From Escherichia phage naam, in the sequence record MN850630.1: a stretch of DNA of 64,000 nt. The stretch is one strand, 5' to 3'. Below the pieces are notes generated by a model that saw only the letters and a program-made list of their open reading frames with translations, had not been told where the DNA came from and ran no database searches. This document shows, piece by piece, positions 4,142 through 47,904 of this stretch. The translations under genes and the position numbers were made by a program. The stretch's first letter is position 1. Each line of letters starts with the position of its first letter.

Positions 4142-7100
4142 TGCCAATTGCAATGATTGATAACATCGTTGCTTCTGCAAGATCTTCAAGTTATGACTGG
4201 AACGCATCCAAGGCAGCTCTGGCTGACAGCCTGAACACTGTGACCACCAGAACTTTGGATAAGATTTTTGAGGGCAACAAATCTTACAGAAGTCAGCAAG
4301 ATAGACAAAAGCTTCTCAGATCTTCTGCTGCACCTTGCTCTGTAGTGTATGGAAAGACACGCACATCTGGATTGCTTGCGTTTTTGGAGCAGGATAGCGA
4401 CAGAACCCTCCATTGTGCTATTGTTCTTGCCAATCACCCTCTGGAAGGTATAGAAGATATACTTATCGACGGTAATCCTATTTCCTCGTATGGAGATCTG
4501 GTATCGTGGGAGCTACATAACGACAGAAAAACATCTGATCCTTTCATGGGTACACACTGCCCATCATGGTCACCTGACATGATAGGTAGAGGGATCAGTT
4601 GGCTACGTGCCAGCTTCAGGTTTGACCCTAACAAGTTTCCTTTTGGGTTGCCAAACGTTACACTCGTCAAGATTGGTAAAAAATGCTATGATCCTCGTAT
4701 CAGTAAAGAGGTGTACACCAATAACGCTGCCTTGGTGATCCTAGACTATTTAAGAACGTACCTTAAATGTCCTGACGAAACCATCAACTGGGAGTCCTTC
4801 AAGGAGGCTGCCAACATATGCGACGAGGCGGTAAAAAACGCAGACGGAACCAGTGAGCGCCGTTACACCATTAACGGTGAGTTTGACATGGATGAGGCCC
4901 CAGCAAGTATTATGGCAGAAATGCTGAAAGCTTGCGGTGCAGATCTTAGTTATGTTGCTGGTAAGTATGGTTTGCTGGTTGGTGCATACTATGGCCCAGC
5001 AACAATGACACTTAGTGAGGACTGTGTCTGTGGTGAGGTTAAGATCTATCCGGAAGCCTCATTTGACAAAAGATCCAACACAATAACTGGCAGATTCACT
5101 AGCCCGACCAAAGGGTATTCTGAAACAGATTTTCCATCAGTGTTTGTCCCAGAGTGGATAGAGAAGGATGGAGAAAGAAAGATAATCGATATAGATTATC
5201 GCTTTGTTACCAGTCCTTACCAAGCTCAGCGTGTTTCTGCAATCTTCCTAAGACGTGCTAGAGCTGGCAGGATTATTGAAGTCACCTGCAATATGCGAGG
5301 TTTTAAATTTAAGCCTGGCCGTTATGTTACAATGGACCTCCCAAGTATTGGTATTGTGGGCCAAGAAATGAGGGTTCTTGAATGGGAGTTCACCAAAAAG
5401 GGCGGTGTCAAGGTAAAACTTCGTCAAGATGCTAAAGAGTGGAATGATGCCACAGGGCAACTTCCGGATTCCGGCGATGTAGATATTCCGATATCCCCGT
5501 CCGGTGTAGCTCAGCCGCAAAACTTCAGATACTCCGTTCTCCAAGCTGGGGAAGTAACTCACGGTGTTTTGGCCTGGGACAACGTTGGGACTTACGCTCA
5601 AAATATTGTGCAGGTAAGAAAGAACGGAGAGATTGTTTGGACAGCACAGACAGTTGAGCAGTTTGTCCGTGTTGAAGGTCTGACTAAAGGTTCCTACACA
5701 GCCACTGTTGTTGCAACATCTTATAAAGGTGGTGTATCTCCAGAAGCGTATTGTGAGTTTAACATTCAGGCACCTGAAGCTCCGGTTTCTGTAGAGGTTA
5801 AGCAAGGATACTTTGCTATCACCTTGATTCCGCATAGTAGGGATTTAGCAAGTGTTAGCACCCAGTATGACTTTTGGACATCCGGTATGACAAGGTTGCC
5901 CGACACCAGTGATGCAACCGTTACTTCAAACGCCACCCGTATGGGTGTTGGTTCAACTTGGACATCTGAAGGTCTGCAGAACGATAAGGTTTATTATTGG
6001 TATATTCGAACCACAAACGCTTTTGGTAGTTCTCAGTTTGTAGAATGCGCTGCACGCTGCTACACCTCTATTGAGGATTTGATGCCTCAGATAGATGCTG
6101 AATTCAAAAAGACAGAAACTTATAAAGAGTTGATGAGCACTTTGGATTCCTCTATTGAAGAGGTTGAAAATCGTGTCACAGAACTTAACAGGTACATGGA
6201 TGGTAGGGTAGATGAGGCATTCCAGCAACTTGGAGACAGAATAGGTGCGGTAGTTACAGAGACAACTCAGAAGTTTGAGGATGTCAATGGCAATATCACA
6301 GCGCTGGATAGGAAACTTGTTGCTGCACAGAACAAGTTCACCAACGATCTGAACACTGAAAGTGGAAGATTGGCATCCCTGATTGAGACAACCAATAAAG
6401 CAACTACTGATCTTCTGAACAAAAAGACAGAGGCTTTAGATGAGAAATTGGTTGCCGCCAAAGGTGAGCTGGTAGAGCAGATAGAGGGAGTTGAGAGCGG
6501 GTATTTAGCCGGAGATAAAACTCTGGATGGTAAGATCAATACTCAGAGAACAGAACTTGACGCAAGCATCTTGAGCACTAACCAGGCCACTGTGGATCTT
6601 TTGAACAGGACATCTGAAACTCTGGATCAAAAGATTAGTCAGACAAACGCGACGGTATCTAAAAACTATACCACCCTTGACGGCAAGATAACTACCGCAA
6701 AAACTGACCTCAACACCTTGATTGCCAATACCAACAAGGCCACCACTGACTTGTTGAATCAGAAAACATCTGCACTGTCAGAGCAGATAACTTCTGCACG
6801 TGGGGAGATTTCTACCAACAAGCAAGCGATTGATGCTTTGGATGGAAAACTGACCTCCACAAAAACAGCGCTGGATGCTACAATTTCCGATACCAATAAA
6901 GCCACTGTGGACCTTATCAACGGCACAGCGTCAGCTATTCGTCAAGAACTTGCTGTTGCTAAGCAGGAGATCATTGATGATGTTGGGGATGTGTCTGAGA
7001 TCAGGGCTGCAGTAGCTACAACATCTAAGGCTGTAACCGACTTAGAGGGTAAAGTAAATGCTCAATGGGGCACAAAAATACAGGTAGACTCCGCAGGGAA

Positions 7101-7980
7101 TAAATATGTTGCAGGTATTCAGTTGGGGATGGAAGGGTCTGGAGGCCAAGTTCAATCCTACTTCATGGTTAGCGCAAACAATTTTGCGGTATACAACCCT
7201 GGCAATGGAACAGCAACCCTTGCTTTCGCAATCAAGAACAACCAAGCGTTCTTGAAAGACGCTTTTATAGAGAATGGCACGATCTCCTCTGCCAAGATTG
7301 CACAAGAAATTTCGTCAAACAACTACGATGGCAACGGGTACCATAAATACGGTTGGTATATTAACAAGAACGGGCACGCCCAATTTATGGATGTGTGGGT
7401 GAAAGGCAACATCAACGCCAGTTCTGGTAACTTCACAGGGGCAGTTAACGCCACTAGTGGTACCTTCCGTGGGGATGTTTATGCCAATAATGGTAGCTTT
7501 AGAGGCACCATAGATGCAACCGGAGGTACCTTCCGTGGTCGTGTAGAAGCTTCTGTTATCCGCGCTAACCAGTTCGAAGGTGCAATTGTTGCACACAGGA
7601 CTTACGGAGATTGTGCTCCAGTATATAACTCCCGGCAAAGGGTTTGCCGTTGGAGGTGGAGATACGTAGATAACGTTTCAGGTCAGGGTAAGAACGTAAC
7701 ATTCTTCTTTAAACTGAATGGTACTCTTGCCAGCTCCCAGCTTAACGTTTGGATAGCCAGACATCAAATCCTTGCAGGTAAGAAGTACGGAAACGACAAC
7801 AACGGCATGTGTGCGGTAGGGATAACGGGTCTTGGTGAACAAACCATAGATATTGTTGTTGAAATCTACACACCATGGTCAACGTCTTCTGTAACAGGGG
7901 TCGCAATATCCTGTCCTACTGTTGTGGTAAGCCGTTCTAACTCTAGTTTCCAAGGACCTTGGAACGAGTCTCACGACTAA
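4141..7980 (+). CDS. Tip attachment / central tail fibre protein, lambda J-like, with internal coiled-coil repeat insertion
   Basis: Segments APEAPVSVEVKQGYFAITLIPHS, YDFWTS and YYWYIRTTNAFGSSQFVE match my recollection of the lambda J FN3-like region; about 300 aa of TNKATTDLLN-type repeats in the middle. Confidence 0.8.
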   Translation: MPIAMIDNIVASARSSSYDWNASKAALADSLNTVTTRTLDKIFEGNKSYRSQQDRQKLLRSSAAPCSVVYGKTRTSGLLAFLEQDSDRTLHCAIVLANHPLEGIEDILIDGNPISSYGDLVSWELHNDRKTSDPFMGTHCPSWSPDMIGRGISWLRASFRFDPNKFPFGLPNVTLVKIGKKCYDPRISKEVYTNNAALVILDYLRTYLKCPDETINWESFKEAANICDEAVKNADGTSERRYTINGEFDMDEAPASIMAEMLKACGADLSYVAGKYGLLVGAYYGPATMTLSEDCVCGEVKIYPEASFDKRSNTITGRFTSPTKGYSETDFPSVFVPEWIEKDGERKIIDIDYRFVTSPYQAQRVSAIFLRRARAGRIIEVTCNMRGFKFKPGRYVTMDLPSIGIVGQEMRVLEWEFTKKGGVKVKLRQDAKEWNDATGQLPDSGDVDIPISPSGVAQPQNFRYSVLQAGEVTHGVLAWDNVGTYAQNIVQVRKNGEIVWTAQTVEQFVRVEGLTKGSYTATVVATSYKGGVSPEAYCEFNIQAPEAPVSVEVKQGYFAITLIPHSRDLASVSTQYDFWTSGMTRLPDTSDATVTSNATRMGVGSTWTSEGLQNDKVYYWYIRTTNAFGSSQFVECAARCYTSIEDLMPQIDAEFKKTETYKELMSTLDSSIEEVENRVTELNRYMDGRVDEAFQQLGDRIGAVVTETTQKFEDVNGNITALDRKLVAAQNKFTNDLNTESGRLASLIETTNKATTDLLNKKTEALDEKLVAAKGELVEQIEGVESGYLAGDKTLDGKINTQRTELDASILSTNQATVDLLNRTSETLDQKISQTNATVSKNYTTLDGKITTAKTDLNTLIANTNKATTDLLNQKTSALSEQITSARGEISTNKQAIDALDGKLTSTKTALDATISDTNKATVDLINGTASAIRQELAVAKQEIIDDVGDVSEIRAAVATTSKAVTDLEGKVNAQWGTKIQVDSAGNKYVAGIQLGMEGSGGQVQSYFMVSANNFAVYNPGNGTATLAFAIKNNQAFLKDAFIENGTISSAKIAQEISSNNYDGNGYHKYGWYINKNGHAQFMDVWVKGNINASSGNFTGAVNATSGTFRGDVYANNGSFRGTIDATGGTFRGRVEASVIRANQFEGAIVAHRTYGDCAPVYNSRQRVCRWRWRYVDNVSGQGKNVTFFFKLNGTLASSQLNVWIARHQILAGKKYGNDNNGMCAVGITGLGEQTIDIVVEIYTPWSTSSVTGVAISCPTVVVSRSNSSFQGPWNESHD

Positions 7981-37880: not shown

Positions 37881-39250
37881 TGGAAAAAGGGCAGTATGAT
37901 GTAGGCACAGATGCTGCCCTCGTTGCAATCATGAGCGGTGAGAATGTCTTCGTTTCAGGACCCGCAGGTTGTGGGAAGACGTACCTCATCAACATGATCC
38001 AGTCAATGTATGGAGACTCTTGCATAACGGTTGCCCCGACAGGGGTAGCCGCTTTAAACGTTAATGGAGCAACAGCACACCGAACCTTCGATCTTGCAGC
38101 AGGTGTGAGCATGGAGTCGGACTGGACCGCAATAAGGGCAAAAACAGCAAAGCCTTTGAAAAGCAAGGCATTTACCATCCTAATTATCGATGAAATCTCT
38201 ATGATCCGTGCTGATAAGTTTATAGAGATGGATAGGAAACTCCGCTTCCTTCGAAAAAATGACAAACCTTTCGGGGGCATACAGGTCATATTGTTTGGCG
38301 ATTTTTACCAGGCACCTCCTGTTGTCTCTTCTATGGAGAAGGAAGCCTACTTCAACTTCTACCATACGGACCTGTGTTGCTATACCGAATCTTGGAAAGA
38401 GCTTGACCTCCACAACATAGCCCTAATAGATCAGTTCCGACAGGAGTCTATTCGATTTGCTACAATGCTCAACTGTGTTCGTGAGGGTCGTCGCATAAAA
38501 GAGGTTGTAGCAGAACTTAATGCTCGCTGTTACAAAGGAGGTGTACCAACAGACGCTCTCACAATTTGCGCCACCAACAAACAAGCAGAGGAAGTGAACA
38601 GAAGGTTCTATGATGCCATCAACGCCCCAGAGAAGGTATACACTGGTGAAATGAAGGGTAAGTTTCCCTCCACCCTGCCAGTTGAGCAGGAGATGAAGTT
38701 GAAAATTGGCATGAAAGTTATGATAACCGCCAACGATGTTGACCCGACGCACAAAGTACCTTATTATGTTAACGGAACACGTGCCACAATTGTTAAATTT
38801 AAGAACAAGGCGGTGGTGGTAGAGCTTGAAGATGGAACACAGGTTGACATAGAGCAGAGGTTGTGGGAGAATAACGAGTATAAGCCATCTCAGAGATACA
38901 ACATTGCAGAAAGGAAGATGGAGAAGTTTATAGAGAGGGTAGTGATTGGGTCATACAAGCAACTTCCTCTGAAATCTGGGTACGCCGTAACATCTCATAA
39001 AAGTCAAGGACTTACACTAGATTGTTACAACCTAGACCTTGGAAAGAACGGAGCTTTCTCTCCTGGGATGACGTATGTCGCTTTGAGTAGAGTTAAGACA
39101 ATACAAGGGATAAACTTGTTGCGTCCACTAAGAGAAGTTGACATTATTGTTGACCCGCGAGTCGTAGAGTTTTACAATACAACATTCCCTGACTTAGACA
39201 AAATTGTCAGGAAAGATTTTGAAACCAGAGCCGAAGAGGGGGACGTATGA
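37880..39250 (+). CDS. SF1 DNA helicase (Pif1/RecD/Dda-like)
   Basis: Walker A GPAGCGKT followed by VAPTGVAALNVNGATAH; Walker B-like ILIIDEISM; start overlaps the upstream stop. Confidence 0.8.
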   Translation: MEKGQYDVGTDAALVAIMSGENVFVSGPAGCGKTYLINMIQSMYGDSCITVAPTGVAALNVNGATAHRTFDLAAGVSMESDWTAIRAKTAKPLKSKAFTILIIDEISMIRADKFIEMDRKLRFLRKNDKPFGGIQVILFGDFYQAPPVVSSMEKEAYFNFYHTDLCCYTESWKELDLHNIALIDQFRQESIRFATMLNCVREGRRIKEVVAELNARCYKGGVPTDALTICATNKQAEEVNRRFYDAINAPEKVYTGEMKGKFPSTLPVEQEMKLKIGMKVMITANDVDPTHKVPYYVNGTRATIVKFKNKAVVVELEDGTQVDIEQRLWENNEYKPSQRYNIAERKMEKFIERVVIGSYKQLPLKSGYAVTSHKSQGLTLDCYNLDLGKNGAFSPGMTYVALSRVKTIQGINLLRPLREVDIIVDPRVVEFYNTTFPDLDKIVRKDFETRAEEGDV

Positions 39251-39588
39251 GTTTGTGGAGAAATATAGTTAACTACGTGTGTGGCAATCCAACTCCTGAA
39301 GAGAAGGATGTTTTGATTCACGATTTTACTAAAAGATCCCGTGAAAAAGATCTACTGTTAACAAAGGTGACTGATAAAGACCCTGCAGTAGGGGACTGGG
39401 CAGGTTTTGCGTTTACATCGGACAAATACACCTTTAACAAAGGTGACTACCTTGTTGTGGATTTTAACGAAGACATCGAGGGTGCTGAACCTTACTATCA
39501 GACCCTTATTGTTGCAGGGTGTGTTAATCTATCTTCAGGCATGCACAGTTTGATTCTTTTTGAGCTTGACTCTGAAGACCTTGAGTAG
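39247..39588 (+). CDS. Hypothetical protein
   Basis: 113 aa ORF overlapping the helicase stop. Confidence 0.5.
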   Translation: MSLWRNIVNYVCGNPTPEEKDVLIHDFTKRSREKDLLLTKVTDKDPAVGDWAGFAFTSDKYTFNKGDYLVVDFNEDIEGAEPYYQTLIVAGCVNLSSGMHSLILFELDSEDLE

Positions 39589-39649
39589 TAAGATGTGAGT
39601 ATAAAGGGGAGGCCTCCTCCCCACAAAAAACTAAGGAGAGCACCAAACG

Positions 39650-40975
39650 ATGAGCAAAACCAAATTAGAACTTACCTGGATAGGTAAAAACGAGCGCAAA
39701 AAGTTAGAGCCGCACATTTTATTAGAAGATTCTAGCAAGTCTTACCGCAGCCAGAAAGTGACCGAAAACGATATTTTTGATAATAAACTGATTTTTGGAG
39801 ATAACTTATTAGCATTGAAGGCGCTAGAGCAAGAGTATGCAGGCAAAGTGAAGTGTGTTTACATAGACCCGCCATTCAATACCGGGAGGGCTTTTGAGCA
39901 CTACGATGATAGCCTGGAGCATTCCATTTGGCTGGGCTTAATGAGGGATAGGTTAGAAATAATTCGTAATCTTCTAAGTGATGATGGGGTAATATTCGTT
40001 CACTTAGATGATTGCGAAATGGCGTATTTAAAAGTTTTGATGGACGAGATTTTTGGTCGTGCAAATCAGTTAAATACCATATCGATGACCACAAATTCCC
40101 CTTCGGGATTTAAGGCAACAGGAGCCACAGTTTTCTCCACAGCAAACTTTTTGCTTGTATATGCAAAAGATCGCACCCAGAAACCGCTTAACAAAATCTA
40201 TATACCTAAAGGGTACGATACAGGATATAACAAATACCTATTAAACCCGGATGACCATTATAAAAATTGGACGTGGTGCAGTATTGCCGATGCGTTTGCA
40301 AAGGCCAATGGCTATAAGGATGCAAAAGAAGCCAAGAAAAAACTACCTGACACATTCGATGATGAATTAGCACAATTCGCAATTGATAATGCAGAACGTG
40401 TATTTCAATCTGTTGCAATTGGTGGTGGTGCTAAAATAAAGAGAAAAGAAACTATCGAGAAGTCAAAGAAAGATAGGGATAAGGTTTATGTACATCCAAA
40501 TGAGGATGTTGAAGGATTTTATATCGCAAATGGTAGGCAAATGGTCTTTTACTCCAATAGACTTTTGGAAATTGACGGTGAGATGCAACCTGCGGAACTA
40601 ATAACTGATGTTTGGACTGATATTAGTTGGAATGGAATAGCAAATGAAGGCGGCGTCAGTTTCAAAAATGGGAAAAAACCAGAAGCGCTTTTGAAGCGGA
40701 TTTTAGAAATGTGTACGCGAGAAGGCGATTTGGTATTGGATTCATTCGGTGGTTCGGGAACTACTGCTGCTGTAGCTCACAAGATGAAAAGACGTTGGAT
40801 CTCAATCGAGCTAGGTGATCATTGTCATACCCATATTATTCCGCGCTTGGAAAAAGTGATCGATGGCGAAGATCAAGGCGGTATTTCTAAGTCTGTAAAC
40901 TGGAAAGGTGGTGGTGGCTTCCGTTATTACAAACTTACCCCGACCTTAATTGCGAAAGATAAGTCTGATCAATAA
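39650..40975 (+). CDS. DNA methyltransferase (N6-adenine or N4-cytosine, beta-class)
   Basis: Catalytic motif IV VYIDPPFNTG precedes SAM-binding motif I SFGGSGTT, the order of beta-class amino-MTases. Confidence 0.8.
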   Translation: MSKTKLELTWIGKNERKKLEPHILLEDSSKSYRSQKVTENDIFDNKLIFGDNLLALKALEQEYAGKVKCVYIDPPFNTGRAFEHYDDSLEHSIWLGLMRDRLEIIRNLLSDDGVIFVHLDDCEMAYLKVLMDEIFGRANQLNTISMTTNSPSGFKATGATVFSTANFLLVYAKDRTQKPLNKIYIPKGYDTGYNKYLLNPDDHYKNWTWCSIADAFAKANGYKDAKEAKKKLPDTFDDELAQFAIDNAERVFQSVAIGGGAKIKRKETIEKSKKDRDKVYVHPNEDVEGFYIANGRQMVFYSNRLLEIDGEMQPAELITDVWTDISWNGIANEGGVSFKNGKKPEALLKRILEMCTREGDLVLDSFGGSGTTAAVAHKMKRRWISIELGDHCHTHIIPRLEKVIDGEDQGGISKSVNWKGGGGFRYYKLTPTLIAKDKSDQ

Positions 40976-40988
40976 AGAGTACAATCAA

Positions 40989-41294
40989 ATGATGAAACGT
41001 TATAAACCATACACTTTTGAAATCGATTTCGAACTTGACGATATGTTCACTGTGGAAGCTCAGGCAGTTGTCCAGTTGCCAGACCCAGCGTGCCGTGATT
41101 CTGATGTTGACTATTATGGATTTAGACAAATTACCGATGTGCATGTTTACCACAACGGTGAAGAGGTGGACTTCCACAAACTGCCAAACGATATGCGCCA
41201 CTCAATTTACAAACGTGCAGCCCGTGAACTAGAGTCCTATCTTGATGCAGCGACGACAGCAGCTGCATTTGCCGAAGAAGTGGGAGGTTTCTGA
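40989..41294 (+). CDS. Hypothetical protein
   Basis: Track start 40950 lies inside the MTase gene; first ATG after the MTase stop is 40989. Confidence 0.45.
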   Translation: MMKRYKPYTFEIDFELDDMFTVEAQAVVQLPDPACRDSDVDYYGFRQITDVHVYHNGEEVDFHKLPNDMRHSIYKRAARELESYLDAATTAAAFAEEVGGF

Positions 41295-41689
41295 TGATTA
41301 CAGGTGTGAAGATTATCCAATACCACTTAACCAAGTTGGAAGATGCTGAGAAAGAGCTTGCAGAAGTTCTGAACAGTGGATATACTTTGCTATCATGCGC
41401 CTGTTCAGACACCTACGCTGTGTGGACACTTATCCGGAAGGAAGAGCCTGCAGGGATCTTGGTGCCAAACCCTAAGATTATTAGTGAGGTGGATGACTAC
41501 CCCCAAGACGGCCTGCCAGAAGGCTGGGAAGTATGGGAAGGTGGTGAAAACCCTGCACCAGGTAAGTGGGTAAAATACAAACTACGTAGTGGTGCACAGT
41601 ACGCTGACTACTCTGATGACCTAGACTGGAGTCATTCTTCACCAGGATCGTCTGCAAGTTCATATGATATCGTTGCTTTTCAGGAATAA
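41294..41689 (+). CDS. Hypothetical protein
   Basis: 131 aa ORF with RBS ggagg. Confidence 0.5.
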   Translation: MITGVKIIQYHLTKLEDAEKELAEVLNSGYTLLSCACSDTYAVWTLIRKEEPAGILVPNPKIISEVDDYPQDGLPEGWEVWEGGENPAPGKWVKYKLRSGAQYADYSDDLDWSHSSPGSSASSYDIVAFQE

Positions 41690-41701
41690 GGAGAGAGTAC
41701 T

Positions 41702-42184
41702 ATGTCAGATTTTATGTGGAAAGTAGGCTATGCCACTCCTGAAATGTGCGAGGCTTGCTTTGTGAAAATAGGCCGCGAGGATATCGACAAAGTGATCCTT
41801 AAGTTTCGTGATGTGGCTGTGATCGGCAACCGGGTGCTTAAGCACTTAAAGAATCTGAAGCTCACTAAAAAGAAGTTCTTCGGACTTTTCGAAGAGAAAG
41901 TTGATGCTTGGACCCATTGCATTCAGGAAGCTAAATCTCACTACAGTGCTATCGTTACTCCAGAACGGGTAGCTAAGATGGAAGGATTCATCAACAGCAC
42001 AGAATTTGAGTGTCTGAAAGCTGCACTTGATAGTTATCCGAAATGCCTCAAGCACTTGGACAAGTATGCAGAAAAGGATGGGGAAATGTATCTAACCCTG
42101 GACGCATATTATGAGATGCAAGAAATTTTAAATTTAGATTTGACATTGGTATCCACCGAGTACACAATAGGTATCCGGGTTTAA
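41702..42184 (+). CDS. Hypothetical protein
   Basis: 160 aa ORF with RBS ggagag, followed by a terminator. Confidence 0.5.
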   Translation: MSDFMWKVGYATPEMCEACFVKIGREDIDKVILKFRDVAVIGNRVLKHLKNLKLTKKKFFGLFEEKVDAWTHCIQEAKSHYSAIVTPERVAKMEGFINSTEFECLKAALDSYPKCLKHLDKYAEKDGEMYLTLDAYYEMQEILNLDLTLVSTEYTIGIRV

Positions 42185-42190
42185 CACTAG

Positions 42191-42218
42191 GCCCTGCCCG
42201 AAAGGGTGGGGCTTTTTG
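42191..42218 (+). terminator. Rho-independent terminator, GAAA-tetraloop hairpin
   Basis: gccctgccc-gaaa-gggtggggc followed by tttttg; identical hairpin recurs at 52325. Confidence 0.8.
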
Positions 42219-42235
42219 CATTAGGAGACAGCAAA

Positions 42236-43000
42236 TTGAAATTTATCTACAAAGAACACTACCATAAAGGTGTTGTGTGGAGTCTATTTGACGGGTCTGG
42301 TGGTGCAGTCATTGACTGGGCAAAAGCTGGGTACCTGTGCCTGTGCTTTAATGCAGAAGGCGCTGATCACGGCAGTTATGCAGAGGTGATCACCGATCAT
42401 CCCAACATTCACTATGTGGACTATTGGATTGACCCGTGGTTCCCTCAGGAAACTTTTTGCATGTATCCGGCTCCAGACTTTATTCTTGCATTTCCTCCGT
42501 GCACGCATTTAGCGGTATCAGGTGCTGCACATTTTAAGAAAAAGCTGGCTAAGGACCCCATGATCCAAATTAATGCTGTAAAGGATGCTCGGGTTGCGGA
42601 AGAGCTGGGAGAGATTTACGATTGCCCGTGGCATGTAGAGAATCCTGTGGGTGTTATGTCCACACTGTGGCGCAAACCTGATTACCGTTTTCACCCTTCG
42701 GATTATGGCGGGTATTTACCGGAAGATGATGTAAACCCATGGTTTCCTGAATTTATAGCTCCACGTGATGCCTATCCAAAAATAACTTGCGGCTGGATAG
42801 GTAATGGATTTATAATCCCAGCCACAAAACCTGTCCCGCAAATAGTTGACGCGGTTAGCGGGTATTCCATGCAACACGCCAAGCTGGGTGGAAAGAGTGC
42901 AAGAACGAAGATGATTCGAAGCCTCACACCACGTGGCTGGGCAAAAGCCGTATTCCTAGCAAACGAGCCTGTAGTAAGGAGCAGAATTAATGGGAAGTAA
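42236..43000 (+). CDS. C5-cytosine methyltransferase-like protein with non-canonical motifs and no obvious target-recognition domain
   Basis: Track GTG start 42206 is inside the terminator stem; TTG at 42236 has RBS aggaga. Motif I-like SLFDGSGG, PC-like FPPCTH, ENV-like VENPVG. Confidence 0.45.
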   Translation: MKFIYKEHYHKGVVWSLFDGSGGAVIDWAKAGYLCLCFNAEGADHGSYAEVITDHPNIHYVDYWIDPWFPQETFCMYPAPDFILAFPPCTHLAVSGAAHFKKKLAKDPMIQINAVKDARVAEELGEIYDCPWHVENPVGVMSTLWRKPDYRFHPSDYGGYLPEDDVNPWFPEFIAPRDAYPKITCGWIGNGFIIPATKPVPQIVDAVSGYSMQHAKLGGKSARTKMIRSLTPRGWAKAVFLANEPVVRSRINGK

Positions 43001-45126: not shown

Positions 45127-47904
45127 ATGAGCATGTGGTCGTTCGATTTTGAGTCATCCGGTTTGCTGGAAGACCCAGATCTTTATTATCACTGCGGCCT
45201 GTTTAAAGAGCTGAATAAGAACCGTTTTATGCTGTTCCTTCCTCTGAATGACCGCACACACTACTCCGAGGAGGATATAGAGAAGGCCAAGAACTTTATT
45301 CTGGCAAAGAAAACTCTTTATAAGGATTTTGAAGTTCGCATAGCAGATTTTTCGGAGTTGGAAGGTTGGCTTACAGGAAATTCCGACTGGTCACCAACAG
45401 CTTTGAACTGCCATAACTGCTACAGTTATGACTTTATGCTGATGGAGAGATTATCCGGTATTCATTTTGATATGTTCCGTGATCCTAAATGTATGGGGAC
45501 TATCAACGACCACCAGGTTAACCTGTTTGATACGTTGGCGATGAGCCGAATCTTGTGGCCTGATCGCCCTTTACCAAAAGGTTGTCCGGACTCCGTATTC
45601 AACCCGGTTACTAAGAAAATGCAGCCTGTTGGTCCTCACGGCCTTATGGCATGGGGCTACGCCCTTGGTAACCAGAAAGTTCAAATTGATGACTGGCGCG
45701 ATCTTCCGTTGTGGAAGTATGTGGATCGTGTATTCGAGGACGTTATCATCCAGGAGCTACTCTGGAAAGAGCTGGTAGCGGAATCAAAAGGTGTATTCTA
45801 CGGCAAATCTGACATGCAGAACTTTATGTACGATCCTGCCAAAGAGAAGCCGAAAGGGTTCAAGAAGATCACCTGGAAGAACGCATTGCGCCGGGGTATG
45901 CTGCAACACTTCCTGATGGAGCTGCAGGCCCGTCAGGGTGTGTATTTTGACATAGATGGGGCTATTGCTTTACGTGACCGTTGCGATGCTTGGATGAAAG
46001 AAATCGCTGATCGTGTTGAACCACAACTACCTTTAAAAGAGCTGTCAATGTCTCAGCGGCCCAAGTTCCCTGAAAAGCCGTTTAACCAAGATGGGACAAT
46101 CTCCAATAATGGTTGGAAATGGTTAAAAGATAAGCTTGGCTATCCTGTGGACATGAGTGCTTTAGAGTTCAAGGCCCCGCCTAAGCGAGCATTTACCTCT
46201 ACAGGAGATGTCAGTAAGATGGGGATAAAATGGTGTGAAGAGATGGGCTGCAAAGACCCAGATAAGATGGCTGATTTCTTGAGAGGCTATATTAAGGGCA
46301 CCTCCACACCACAACCTTTGCCTAAAGAGCTAATGGATCAGGCAATAAGTGATCTACAGCAGAAGCGAATGCCGGACTGCAAGATACCTATGAAAATCAG
46401 CAACCAGGACGACATTAAGCGATACCTGATCAGTGCTGGTTGGCTTCCGACAATGTGGAGAACTAAGGATGTAACTAAAGACAGCAAGAAGAAAGCTCTA
46501 CCTGATGCAGATGTTGATGCACGAGTATATGCATATATGGACGAGCTTTTAGAGTCAGAGTATTGTGACCTGATTATCAACTTCTGGAACAAAACTGATG
46601 CTAAGTTCCAGACAACCGTGCACAAGTTCCGAAGCTTTCCTAACTCCGAAAGGATTAAAAAGGAAGTATTCGGGAAAATACGTAGAAAAGCTAGGGCACT
46701 TATTACTTCTCCGCAACTGAAAGATACTTTTGGACACCTATGTCCAAATCTTGAAAAATTGAACGGAGAGATGGCTAAAGATATCGTCTTGTGGTTATCA
46801 TTGCGAAACCGCAGATCGGTCCTTGATCCAATCAAGGAGGATAAGGTTGATACTGGTCTTCTTAATCACCCACGTTTGAAGATTGACCATAAGCTTCCTG
46901 CTAAAAGCTCTGGATTAACAAACACTTCCCGACAGAAACACAGTATTTGTGCAAACATGCCTAAACCATCTCCTAAAGTGGTTATGGGTAAAGAGATGCG
47001 TAGTCTGTGGGGTGTTCCTCCAGGATACTTTGAGATCGGTATTGACGGGTCCAACTTAGAGCAGCTTATCGGGGCTTGGGGTGCCTTTGAGTTCGACAAC
47101 GGCTTGTATTATGATGTTGTAAGTAACGGAGACGCACACCAAAACAACGCCGAGGCATATACAAAAGTAGCAGGCAGAGAGGTATCTCGTAACGACGGTA
47201 AACCTATCACGTATGGGGTTATGTACGGGGCACAAAAAGACAAAGTTGCAGACATGCTGGATATCTCCCCAGAGTTGGGACAAAGGGTAATTGATGCACT
47301 TTGGGATGCCAACCCTGGTCTTAAGGGGCGTAAAGAAGATCTGGAGAAATTCTGGGAAGCAACGGGTAAGAAGTTTATCTACTCTTTTGATGGTCATGCT
47401 ATCTGGACCCGATCTAAACACTCTTTACTTAATGCATACCAACAGAATGGTGGTGCATCGTTGTGTGACTTAGTTGGGATACTCATGCACCACCAAATGG
47501 TGAAGCGTGGGTGGTACGATGAAGGTGTTCGTCGTATTATTTATTACCATGACGAATATCAGCTTCAAGTCCCTGACACACCTAAGTATAAGACTGTGTA
47601 CACCTTCGACACAATTGAAGAACTGGAAGCATTTAAGGCAGAGCAGGAGTCCAAACTTCATGTGTTCGACGGTCATAAGTACAAAAAGGCACGCAAGGAT
47701 GAGGACGGAAACGAAGTGGTTGACAGAGACGGAAACACGGTGTACGATCCTATCCTGAACGATGACGGAAAGCTTGAACTTATCTGGAGCCCTGTGGGTG
47801 AAATGGTGGTGCATTGCTTCTGGCAAGCTTCTAAAATGATGGGCGTCCCGTTTCAGATCACAGGTGAATACCTGTGTGGTCGTAATTGGGGTGATTGTCA
47901 CTAA
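45127..47904 (+). CDS. DNA polymerase, family A (Pol I-like) with N-terminal exonuclease region
   Basis: Motif B-like RNDGKPITYGVMYGAQ, motif C YYHDEYQLQV, N-terminal FDFESSGL exo-like motif; 925 aa. Confidence 0.85.
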   Translation: MSMWSFDFESSGLLEDPDLYYHCGLFKELNKNRFMLFLPLNDRTHYSEEDIEKAKNFILAKKTLYKDFEVRIADFSELEGWLTGNSDWSPTALNCHNCYSYDFMLMERLSGIHFDMFRDPKCMGTINDHQVNLFDTLAMSRILWPDRPLPKGCPDSVFNPVTKKMQPVGPHGLMAWGYALGNQKVQIDDWRDLPLWKYVDRVFEDVIIQELLWKELVAESKGVFYGKSDMQNFMYDPAKEKPKGFKKITWKNALRRGMLQHFLMELQARQGVYFDIDGAIALRDRCDAWMKEIADRVEPQLPLKELSMSQRPKFPEKPFNQDGTISNNGWKWLKDKLGYPVDMSALEFKAPPKRAFTSTGDVSKMGIKWCEEMGCKDPDKMADFLRGYIKGTSTPQPLPKELMDQAISDLQQKRMPDCKIPMKISNQDDIKRYLISAGWLPTMWRTKDVTKDSKKKALPDADVDARVYAYMDELLESEYCDLIINFWNKTDAKFQTTVHKFRSFPNSERIKKEVFGKIRRKARALITSPQLKDTFGHLCPNLEKLNGEMAKDIVLWLSLRNRRSVLDPIKEDKVDTGLLNHPRLKIDHKLPAKSSGLTNTSRQKHSICANMPKPSPKVVMGKEMRSLWGVPPGYFEIGIDGSNLEQLIGAWGAFEFDNGLYYDVVSNGDAHQNNAEAYTKVAGREVSRNDGKPITYGVMYGAQKDKVADMLDISPELGQRVIDALWDANPGLKGRKEDLEKFWEATGKKFIYSFDGHAIWTRSKHSLLNAYQQNGGASLCDLVGILMHHQMVKRGWYDEGVRRIIYYHDEYQLQVPDTPKYKTVYTFDTIEELEAFKAEQESKLHVFDGHKYKKARKDEDGNEVVDRDGNTVYDPILNDDGKLELIWSPVGEMVVHCFWQASKMMGVPFQITGEYLCGRNWGDCH

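Follow-up and report, generated by a model that had tools for sequence, protein, structure and literature searches.

Why should a lytic phage of Escherichia coli carry two DNA methyltransferase genes so close together, where did each of them come from, and what could each do for the phage? The question is raised by a stretch of 64,000 nucleotides (nt) from Escherichia phage naam (sequence record MN850630.1; hereafter the window). Its plus strand carries an open reading frame (ORF) for 441 amino acids (aa) at 39650-40975, hereafter ORF1, and one for 254 aa at 42236-43000, hereafter ORF2. Both are annotated already in GenBank, and T4 Dam is one of the classic phage orphan methyltransferases. The 3.5-kb region that holds the two genes is 98.7% identical to that of Escherichia phage vb_EcoM_bov10K2, and about 100 further rV5-like phages, including rV5 and the BASEL phage WalterGehring (Bas51), match it at 96-99%. 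These matches identify the window phage as a Vequintavirus, an rV5-like E. coli phage. In our reading, which we hold with good confidence, the region contains two independent orphan DNA methyltransferases of different origin, namely a captured and truncated Mod of a type III restriction-modification system and a compact Dcm-like C5-cytosine enzyme.

A preliminary description of the window had read the ORF1 product as a beta-class amino-methyltransferase with DPPF before FGGSGTT, probably for self-protection. Both motifs are present as quoted. The DPPF codons (residues 73-76, 39866-39877) form the catalytic motif IV, aligned to DPPY of the EcoP15I Mod and of the Helicobacter pylori Mod, and the FGGSGTT codons (residues 366-372, 40745-40765) form motif I, which binds S-adenosylmethionine (SAM). 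The Pfam family PF01555 (N6_N4_Mtase) matches ORF1 with E=4.8e-43 and 148.1 bits (gathering cut-off, 26.7). From the N-terminus, the order is motif IV, recognition domain, motif I, as described for the EcoP15I Mod. The best solved structures were type III Mods, namely the H. pylori Mod (6k0w), the EcoP15I Mod (4zcf) and Mbo45V, and ORF1 aligns with residues 52-522 of the EcoP15I Mod. The PADLOC profile MTase_III (PDLC03636) matches ORF1 at 2.4e-204 over positions 2-444 of 575 only, whereas its match to an E. coli chromosomal Mod of 567 aa (hereafter P0273) runs over positions 2-572. ORF1 and P0273 show 96% protein identity over 436 codons, and the cellular relatives of ORF1, spread over several phyla at 60-77% identity, are nearly all 570-600 aa long.

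Both sequence and fold thus place ORF1 in the Mod clade. Like P0273 and the EcoP15I Mod, it has the N-terminal, methyltransferase and recognition domains and the beta-class order of motifs. It does not have the full set of Mod domains, ending in a linker ahead of the C-terminal alpha/beta domain of P0273. No res gene adjoins it, the neighbours being a Dda/PIF1-like helicase gene, small phage ORFs and a primase/helicase gene. Unlike P0273, it has neither a Res gene nor a DrmD-like SNF2 gene beside it, and its setting is a lytic phage, where a phage ribosome-binding site serves it. The comparisons identify ORF1 as a fragment of a host-derived type III restriction-modification mod gene without the C-terminal domain. 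The preliminary description was correct as far as it went, but this origin and this truncation were missing from it.

Which base does such an enzyme methylate? N6-adenine is much more likely than N4-cytosine, because the closest profile, sequence and fold relatives of ORF1 are type III Mods, of which the solved ones are adenine enzymes. PF01555 takes in enzymes of both kinds, automated annotation in some records names the gene bamHIM or 'BamHI methylase', and GGATCC is rare in the window (4 observed, 13 expected), all of which would suit an N4-cytosine methyltransferase. Motif IV, however, is DPPF, with Asp first as in adenine enzymes. The type III Mods, which methylate adenine, are by far the best matches, whereas the N4-cytosine enzymes (PvuII and the rotifer N4CMT) match in the region of motif I only, with E of 1e-6 or weaker. 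An N4-cytosine specificity is extremely improbable, and we predict ORF1 to be an orphan, type III Mod-like N6-adenine DNA methyltransferase.

The borders of ORF1 show how the gene came to its place. The captured mod fragment measures 1342 bp and has 94.8% DNA identity to E. coli mod, the homology running from about 13 nt 5' of the ATG to about 40990 with an 11-bp deletion in the phage copy. It is flanked by a 10-bp direct repeat (microhomology), the copies of which lie 1342 bp apart: CAAACGATGA at 39644-39653 on the left, and CAAATGATGA at 40986-40995 on the right, where the homology to E. coli mod stops. E. coli mod itself carries CAGAAATG twice, just 5' of the start codon and at codons 450-452. 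The deletion, at about 40965 (40965-40975), shifts the frame and brings the TAA at 40973-40975 into it; past the deletion, the next eight Mod codons ('INKEYN...') are still readable in another frame. In the Vequintaviruses A6-1, A12a, phiWec193 and YP-6 the match to the region is split in two, about 1.34 kb being absent. In A6-1 the junction reads ...CTAAGGAAGCACTAAACGATGAAACG..., with one CAAACGATGA-like site (CTAAACGATGAAACG), and exactly the captured segment is absent.

ORF1 was found in 87 phage records, as against about 117 that have the region; the other 30 or so, otherwise near-identical phages, have the empty site. Phages with and without ORF1 are about 96% identical otherwise. ORF1 is an accessory gene in these close relatives; WalterGehring is one of those that have it. 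On the simplest reading of the junctions, microhomology mediated the capture of a host mod gene's 5' 1.35 kb, which came to lie exactly at a phage gene's start codon. The transfer was from host to phage: the widespread state is the full-length form with its Res partner, the phage has only a fragment, and sister phages have the empty site. The ribosome-binding site of ORF1, AAGGAG at 39633-39638, is the phage's own, and in ORF1-less phages such as A6-1 it serves the small gene that now starts at 40992. Since the capture took place exactly at the start codon of that gene, ORF1 would be expressed from the ribosome-binding site of the latter.

We considered whether the missing C-terminal domain of Mod might be encoded by the ORF at 40950-41294. 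This was rejected: the eight-codon remnant 'INKEYN' is the sole match, and the remainder belongs to an unrelated phage gene, which is found at the empty site too. A 444-aa Mod without the C-terminal domain, 84% identical to ORF1, is encoded at 6001-7335 of a 38.7-kb Logan contig from SRR16894903 (L010). That contig represents a different phage-like element, with NrdD, a radical-SAM activase, PhoH, ClpP and a Dam-type methylase, so the short form is not confined to one phage group. The truncated Mod has either moved between phages or arisen more than once.

The donor system can be recognised in bacteria. In E. coli contigs, P0273 is followed 21-27 nt downstream by a protein of 910-912 aa; PADLOC REase_III recognises the 910-aa partner at 8.8e-191, and the best match to that partner among solved structures is the EcoP15I Res. 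Full-length Mod homologues in Acinetobacter and Aeribacillus are likewise followed by a ResIII protein. The mod gene was present in 29 of 5426 complete E. coli genomes, always on the chromosome and with at most 94.8% nucleotide identity to the phage copy. Strains 2014C-3011 and SMN152SH1 are examples of E. coli with P0273 and its Res. The identity of 60-75% between Mods across phyla suggests that the Mod of such loci undergoes frequent horizontal transfer.

These loci have a further component, observed when those of E. coli (L006:4106-14464), Acinetobacter (L016:366-9571) and Aeribacillus (L017:2143-9433) were compared. In each case a SNF2 helicase of about 955 aa stands ahead of the Mod-Res pair and matches DrmD of DISARM (PADLOC, 9e-209); against NCBIfam DrmD_b it scores 698 bits, under the cut-off of 950. 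Between the SNF2 gene and mod, E. coli has an AbiD and an AbiU/AIPR protein and Acinetobacter an AAA_21 and a DUF4276 protein, while Aeribacillus has no insert. The SNF2-Mod-Res arrangement looks like a conserved triad that doubles as an insertion hotspot. That the E. coli donor is a DISARM system, as its DrmD-like neighbour might suggest, was rejected in view of the strong matches of Mod and Res to type III models; the donor flanks that were read yielded no call of a DrmB/DUF1998 gene.

What did the phage copy lose? In the EcoP15I Mod, residues 14-60 form the N-terminal domain, 62-262 and 390-516 the methyltransferase domain, 263-384 the target-recognition domain and 539-644 the C-terminal domain, and the dimer interface consists of the N-terminal and methyltransferase domains (PMC4490356). 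Res is contacted extensively by the C-terminal domain of ModA, and it is touched by the methyltransferase domain of ModA as well (PMC4490356). In the AlphaFold2 model of P0273, a linker of low confidence (residues 435-445) is followed by a separate alpha/beta domain (446-537), the equivalence of which to the C-terminal domain of EcoP15I is positional only and could not be demonstrated by sequence or fold comparison. Judged by these models, ORF1 keeps the N-terminal, methyltransferase and target-recognition domains, and with them all that dimerisation, site recognition and catalysis should require, and is cut in the linker, without about 125 C-terminal residues. The 11-bp deletion would end the protein past the methyltransferase core, with the loss of the domain that contacts Res in EcoP15I.

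A truncated gene may be a gene in decay, and the pattern of substitution bears on this. Compared with its E. coli counterpart, ORF1 has a dS of 0.197 and a dN of 0.019 (dN/dS, 0.094; 436 codons). ORF1 has therefore been under purifying selection since its divergence from the E. coli copy, and the low ratio speaks for a functional gene. Only 3 of the 18 amino-acid differences from P0273 fall within residues 180-335, the presumed recognition domain; the target specificity is therefore probably unchanged from that of the donor Mod. A functionless passenger, a decaying fragment with no active methylase, might be suspected from the frameshifting deletion, which leaves the protein about 125 residues short of full length, and from the roughly 30 close relatives that live without the gene. 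The dN/dS value, however, speaks against decay. So do the intact 441-aa ORF, with all motifs, in at least 85 phage genomes (divergence span given as 93-99.8%) and the position of the cut, which falls in an interdomain linker and not within a domain. Forms of about 440 aa are also found in other phage or degenerate contexts. We regard decay as very improbable.

Most likely, ORF1 is an N6-adenine methylase that protects phage DNA against the donor system alone. It would use SAM to methylate adenine at the asymmetric target of that system. Through methylation of the replicating phage DNA, the progeny would be protected in E. coli strains that carry the donor Mod-Res. The most plausible benefit of ORF1, then, is immunity of the phage to a single type III system of E. 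coli.

The lost domain brings up another possibility, compatible with the methylase role, which is that ORF1 acts mainly or additionally as an anti-restriction decoy at the protein level, pairing with the host Mod in a heterodimer that blocks the docking of Res. On the basis of EcoP15I, ORF1 keeps the N-terminal and methyltransferase interfaces of the dimer and is without exactly the C-terminal domain that contacts Res. Since it is 96% identical to the host Mod, the dimer interfaces should be compatible. However, ModA contacts Res through the methyltransferase domain too, and the conserved catalytic motifs, together with a dN/dS that is low throughout the protein, are in keeping with a functioning methylase; the C-terminal loss could also be a mere accident of the recombination end-point. 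A decoy role is unlikely. It is decidedly doubtful that the C-terminal loss is functional and that ORF1 is a dual factor, which both methylates the donor site and heterodimerises with the resident Mod into dimers unable to hold Res. If this were true, the phage would have made a dominant-negative inhibitor of the restriction system out of one of the system's own subunits.

The second gene raises a different question, namely whether so short a protein is a C5-cytosine methyltransferase at all. The preliminary description had noted FDGSGG, FPPCTH and ENPVG in a product of about 254 aa without QxRxR or an obvious target-recognition domain, and had offered a minimal or orphan C5-methyltransferase, a hypermodification enzyme or an inactive fold as readings. 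These features are all present as described, at residues 18-23, 86-91 and 135-139 for the three motifs, and a pattern scan found no Q.R.R, PCQ or GN.VP in ORF2. PHROGs alone recognised the protein, phrog_757 ('DNA methyltransferase') matching residues 2-251 over profile positions 5-226 of 247 at 5.3e-87; Pfam, NCBIfam and PADLOC gave no match, with no PF00145 hit at E<=10. Homology thus places ORF2 in a methyltransferase family, and not outside the methyltransferases as the preliminary description had envisaged for the case that its reading was wrong. PF00145 does match 20 of 30 family members weakly, with 1.3e-6 at best. Clustered at 90%, the family numbers 3555 homologues, and at 50% it falls into 2041 representative clusters; nearly every member has 210-260 aa. 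Among the 1505 phage records that carry it are Drexlerviridae, Dhillonvirus, Klebsiella weberviruses, RB49-like phages and others.

Across 96 members, down to 31% identity, C89, E135, P154, Y180, W187 and P195 are invariant, and F86, P87, T90, N136, P137 and K182 are at least 90% conserved. 'FPPCT' and 'ENPV' are therefore a family signature and not degeneration. The catalytic motifs, which the preliminary description had called altered, are indeed variants, but they are those of a large compact family, and an inactive fold is disfavoured by the invariance of C89 and E135. The codon of Cys89, the predicted catalytic nucleophile, lies at 42500-42502, and the residue is aligned to Cys177 of E. 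coli Dcm and to the PPC of HaeIII. The ENPVG codons (residues 135-139) lie at 42638-42652, Glu135 being the glutamate of motif VI. When a single sequence and two family profiles were compared with solved structures, the matches were sub-threshold only (DNMT3B, HaeIII and DNMT2, over motifs I-IV). In hhalign, the family aligned with E. coli Dcm in motif IV alone, at a probability of 0.3%, which is usable for residue equivalence only. Ten N-terminally longer homologues were scanned for informative fusions, and one domain, an HNH nuclease, was found.

The fold of ORF2 is that of a C5-methyltransferase, and its best structural matches are the DNA enzymes DNMT3A and DNMT3B. With the catalytic domains of these enzymes (6u8p, 4u7t), about 190 residues are aligned at 12-15% identity. 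ORF2, a phage enzyme, differs from them in having ENPV instead of ENV and, as far as can be told from its sequence, in being without the target-recognition loop and the RD interface motifs of DNMT3. The canonical C5-methyltransferases (E. coli Dcm, M.HhaI, M.HaeIII; PF00145) have 327-472 aa as compared with 254; ORF2 is without their QxRxR (motif VIII), their GNxVP (motif X) and their target-recognition domain of about 80-100 aa. The last core strand (184-189) and the C-terminal helices are separated by only about 35 residues, and the canonical target-recognition domain is missing. The conserved insert 153-183 and the conserved basic C-terminal segment KLGGKSARTKMIRSLTPRG (residues 216-234, 42881-42937), likely motif IX/X-like, are obvious candidates for DNA contacts.

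An activity has been reported for a homologue. Phage K42, a close relative of KarlJaspers (Bas06), escapes the retron Ec86 by mutations that disrupt a 711-bp gene named 'dcm', the product of which resembles DNMT3A in an AlphaFold model and triggers the retron (bioRxiv 10.1101/2023.08.16.553469). Expression of K42 Dcm raises the 5-methylcytosine (5mC) content of the multicopy single-stranded DNA (msDNA), as measured by LC-MS (mass spectrometry after liquid chromatography) with a 5mC standard, whereas the C82A/E128A/K175A/K176A mutant does not; a change in the CC of CCTGG in the msDNA stem abolishes the defence (bioRxiv 10.1101/2023.08.16.553469). In KarlJaspers and in phage egaa, the 711-bp genes encode exactly C82, E128, K175 and K176. 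ORF2 is 54% identical to their Dcm over 235 residues (E=2e-86, or about 1e-86), with C89, E135 and K182 in register with C82, E128 and K175. The BASEL authors annotated the ORF2 orthologue of WalterGehring as a 'Dcm-like C5 cytosine methyltransferase'. The identity, the residues in register and this annotation therefore place ORF2 in a known compact family, the activity of which has been demonstrated in the K42 homologue, as far as membership can be read from sequence. Of the three readings offered in the preliminary description, the minimal or orphan C5-methyltransferase is accordingly the one that agrees with the fold and with the published 5mC activity. A hypermodification enzyme is disfavoured by the 5mC product of the K42 homologue and by the exceptional restriction sensitivity of Vequintavirinae, which is discussed below.

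ORF2 shares with the K42/KarlJaspers Dcm, of Drexlerviridae, membership in phrog_757, the catalytic Cys, the Glu, the first Lys and a predicted DNMT3A-like fold. It differs in a periphery that is 18 aa longer at the N- and C-termini, in its TTG start and in the loop 196-213, which is of the 'GYSMQH' type in ORF2 and of the 'DNPGW' type in K42 Dcm. It differs also in its context, a 136-kb myovirus in which a primase/helicase gene adjoins it. In the mechanism that we propose, Cys89 would attack C6 of a flipped cytosine, Glu135 would protonate N3, and transfer of the methyl group of SAM would yield 5mC. A possible target is CCWGG, the site that was assumed for the K42 homologue.

It may be asked whether ORF2 is instead a C5-pyrimidine transferase with another substrate or cofactor, such as a DNMT2-like tRNA m5C enzyme or a carboxymethyl transferase using CxSAM, or a DNA 5mC enzyme acting at a site other than CCWGG. 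The LC-MS result for the K42 homologue, which made 5mC on DNA, the effect of the CC mutation in the CCTGG of msDNA and the best structural matches, which are DNA enzymes, speak against such readings. As a whole they are rather improbable. Within them, the non-DNA and non-methyl variants are unlikely, while a family site other than CCWGG is quite possible. Returning to a Dcm-like DNA methylase as the preferred reading, ORF2 would protect the phage from 5mC-sensitive nucleases and would at the same time make it detectable by sensors of the retron Ec86/Eco1 type. The most plausible benefit is 5mC protection, and by analogy with K42 the gene is a potential liability in hosts with that retron. ORF2 was found in about 117 close relatives, and it is a core gene of the replication module.

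The start of ORF2 also required attention. The preliminary description took a GTG within the upstream terminator stem to be the annotated start and preferred the TTG at 42236 with the ribosome-binding site aggaga. The intrinsic-terminator-like hairpin at 42189-42214 has an 11-bp stem, a GAAA loop and a T-run (-22.8 kcal/mol; z=-2.96), and the GTG (42206-42208), with which the longest ORF begins, does lie in its 3' arm. That this GTG had been annotated could not be verified, as none of the five related GenBank/RefSeq records opened uses it. All five annotate the 765-nt ORF that starts with TTG. AGGAGA (42223-42228) stands 7 nt 5' of the TTG, and an 80%-identical homologue begins at the same position, so that the preferred start is upheld. 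The last 11 nt of ORF2 overlap the primase/helicase gene, which starts at 42990.

How do the two genes fit what is known of restriction in these phages? Stand-alone methyltransferases of phages and mobile elements, with no adjacent nuclease, are presumed to protect exported DNA and so to act in anti-restriction (PMC12707154). ORF1 and ORF2 resemble these in standing alone, with no nuclease adjoining, and in being phage-borne. ORF1 differs from other orphan methyltransferases in that its donor, both junctions and the empty site are identifiable and that its nuclease-docking domain has been stripped.

Homology, folds, conservation of motifs, the junctions of the capture, the empty site and purifying selection are shown by the comparisons above. 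Several observations weigh against the enzymatic activity, target sequences and protective effect that we infer for the two genes in this phage. In the BASEL study, Vequintavirinae were 'exceptionally susceptible' to the restriction systems under test (PMC8594841). Any protection by ORF1 or ORF2 must therefore be narrow; the panel of that study included neither the donor type III system nor EcoRII (PMC8594841). We found no methylome data for any Vequintavirus in the literature, which offers only statements from HHpred-based genome annotation. CCWGG occurs 124 times in the window as against 159 expected (ratio, 0.78), and is neither notably avoided nor enriched. The CCWGG specificity of K42 Dcm was assumed by analogy with E. 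coli Dcm and not mapped, and a dcm+ host without the phage enzyme gave low msDNA 5mC (bioRxiv 10.1101/2023.08.16.553469). A specificity identical to that of E. coli Dcm therefore fits K42 Dcm poorly. Lastly, ORF2 has Ile183 at the position of K176; in the family, K182 is conserved at 90% or more and the position after it is not.

Restriction-site avoidance gave no clear signal in the window at CCWGG, at GATC or at the type III sites AGACC and CAGCAG, all of which occur about as often as expected. Under-represented words were GGATCC (the 13 expected being from a Markov model), GTAC (125 observed, 196 expected) and ACGT (144 observed, 192 expected).

Both methylases are of known kinds. Orphan methylases are familiar as an anti-restriction strategy of phages, so that the picture is not altered by either gene, and the clean capture and the missing C-terminal domain of ORF1 are the only points beyond the ordinary. 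ORF1 is an unusually clean natural case of gene capture, in which one can see the type III donor, the microhomology at both junctions, the empty site of sister phages and the regime of selection. Pairs of phages with and without ORF1, together with the identified E. coli Mod-Res, offer a ready test of the host-range gain from one stolen methylase. The same pairs bear on the question whether a Mod without its C-terminal domain is a methylase only or a decoy too. ORF2 extends the family of retron-Ec86-triggering Dcm proteins to Vequintaviruses, and it points to the question how so small an enzyme recognises its site.

The genes around ORF1 and ORF2 all lie on the plus strand, in the order rIIB, Dda/PIF1-like helicase, a small ORF, ORF1, three small ORFs of unknown function, ORF2, primase/helicase and DNA polymerase. 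The first of the three small genes behind ORF1 (40992-41294; phrog_4240) lies, in ORF1-less phages, directly behind the gene at 39247-39588. Its longest ORF is 40950-41294, the probable start being 40989 or 40992. Since the capture it has been translated from behind the ORF1 stop codon and no longer from its own ribosome-binding site. It shows a weak match (1.7e-5) to phrog_1573, which is labelled 'DNA methyltransferase'. The other two, conserved phage ORFs within 41294-42184, are phrog_11995 (41294-41689) and phrog_12900 (41702-42184).

A perfect GC-rich hairpin, GGGGAGG-CCT-CCTCCCC, is located at 39606-39622, just 5' of the ORF1 ribosome-binding site. An A-run follows it on the plus strand and a T-rich stretch on the minus strand, and the hairpin is found, slightly changed, at the empty site of A6-1 also. 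The best sigma-70-like match of the region (42140-42168; TTGACA, a 17-nt spacer and CACAAT; 10 of 12 positions) sits in the 3' end of the ORF at 41702-42184, just 5' of the terminator hairpin that precedes ORF2. The count of promoter-like sites in the region was not above that in shuffled sequence.

Two further observations concern the related phages. Records of the MG0656xx series, entered as 'Campylobacter phage A12a, A13b, A141, A142, C9...', are 96-99% identical to E. coli rV5-like phages in this region; the Campylobacter jejuni host labels are probably wrong, or the isolates are E. coli phages carried along. In WalterGehring (L001:12260-15502), the DNA polymerase gene is annotated as two joined pieces with a homing-endonuclease gene inside and another just upstream. 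The window has a polymerase ORF of 925 aa from 45127 (45127-47904), and the homing-endonuclease content near the polymerase gene may therefore differ among these phages.

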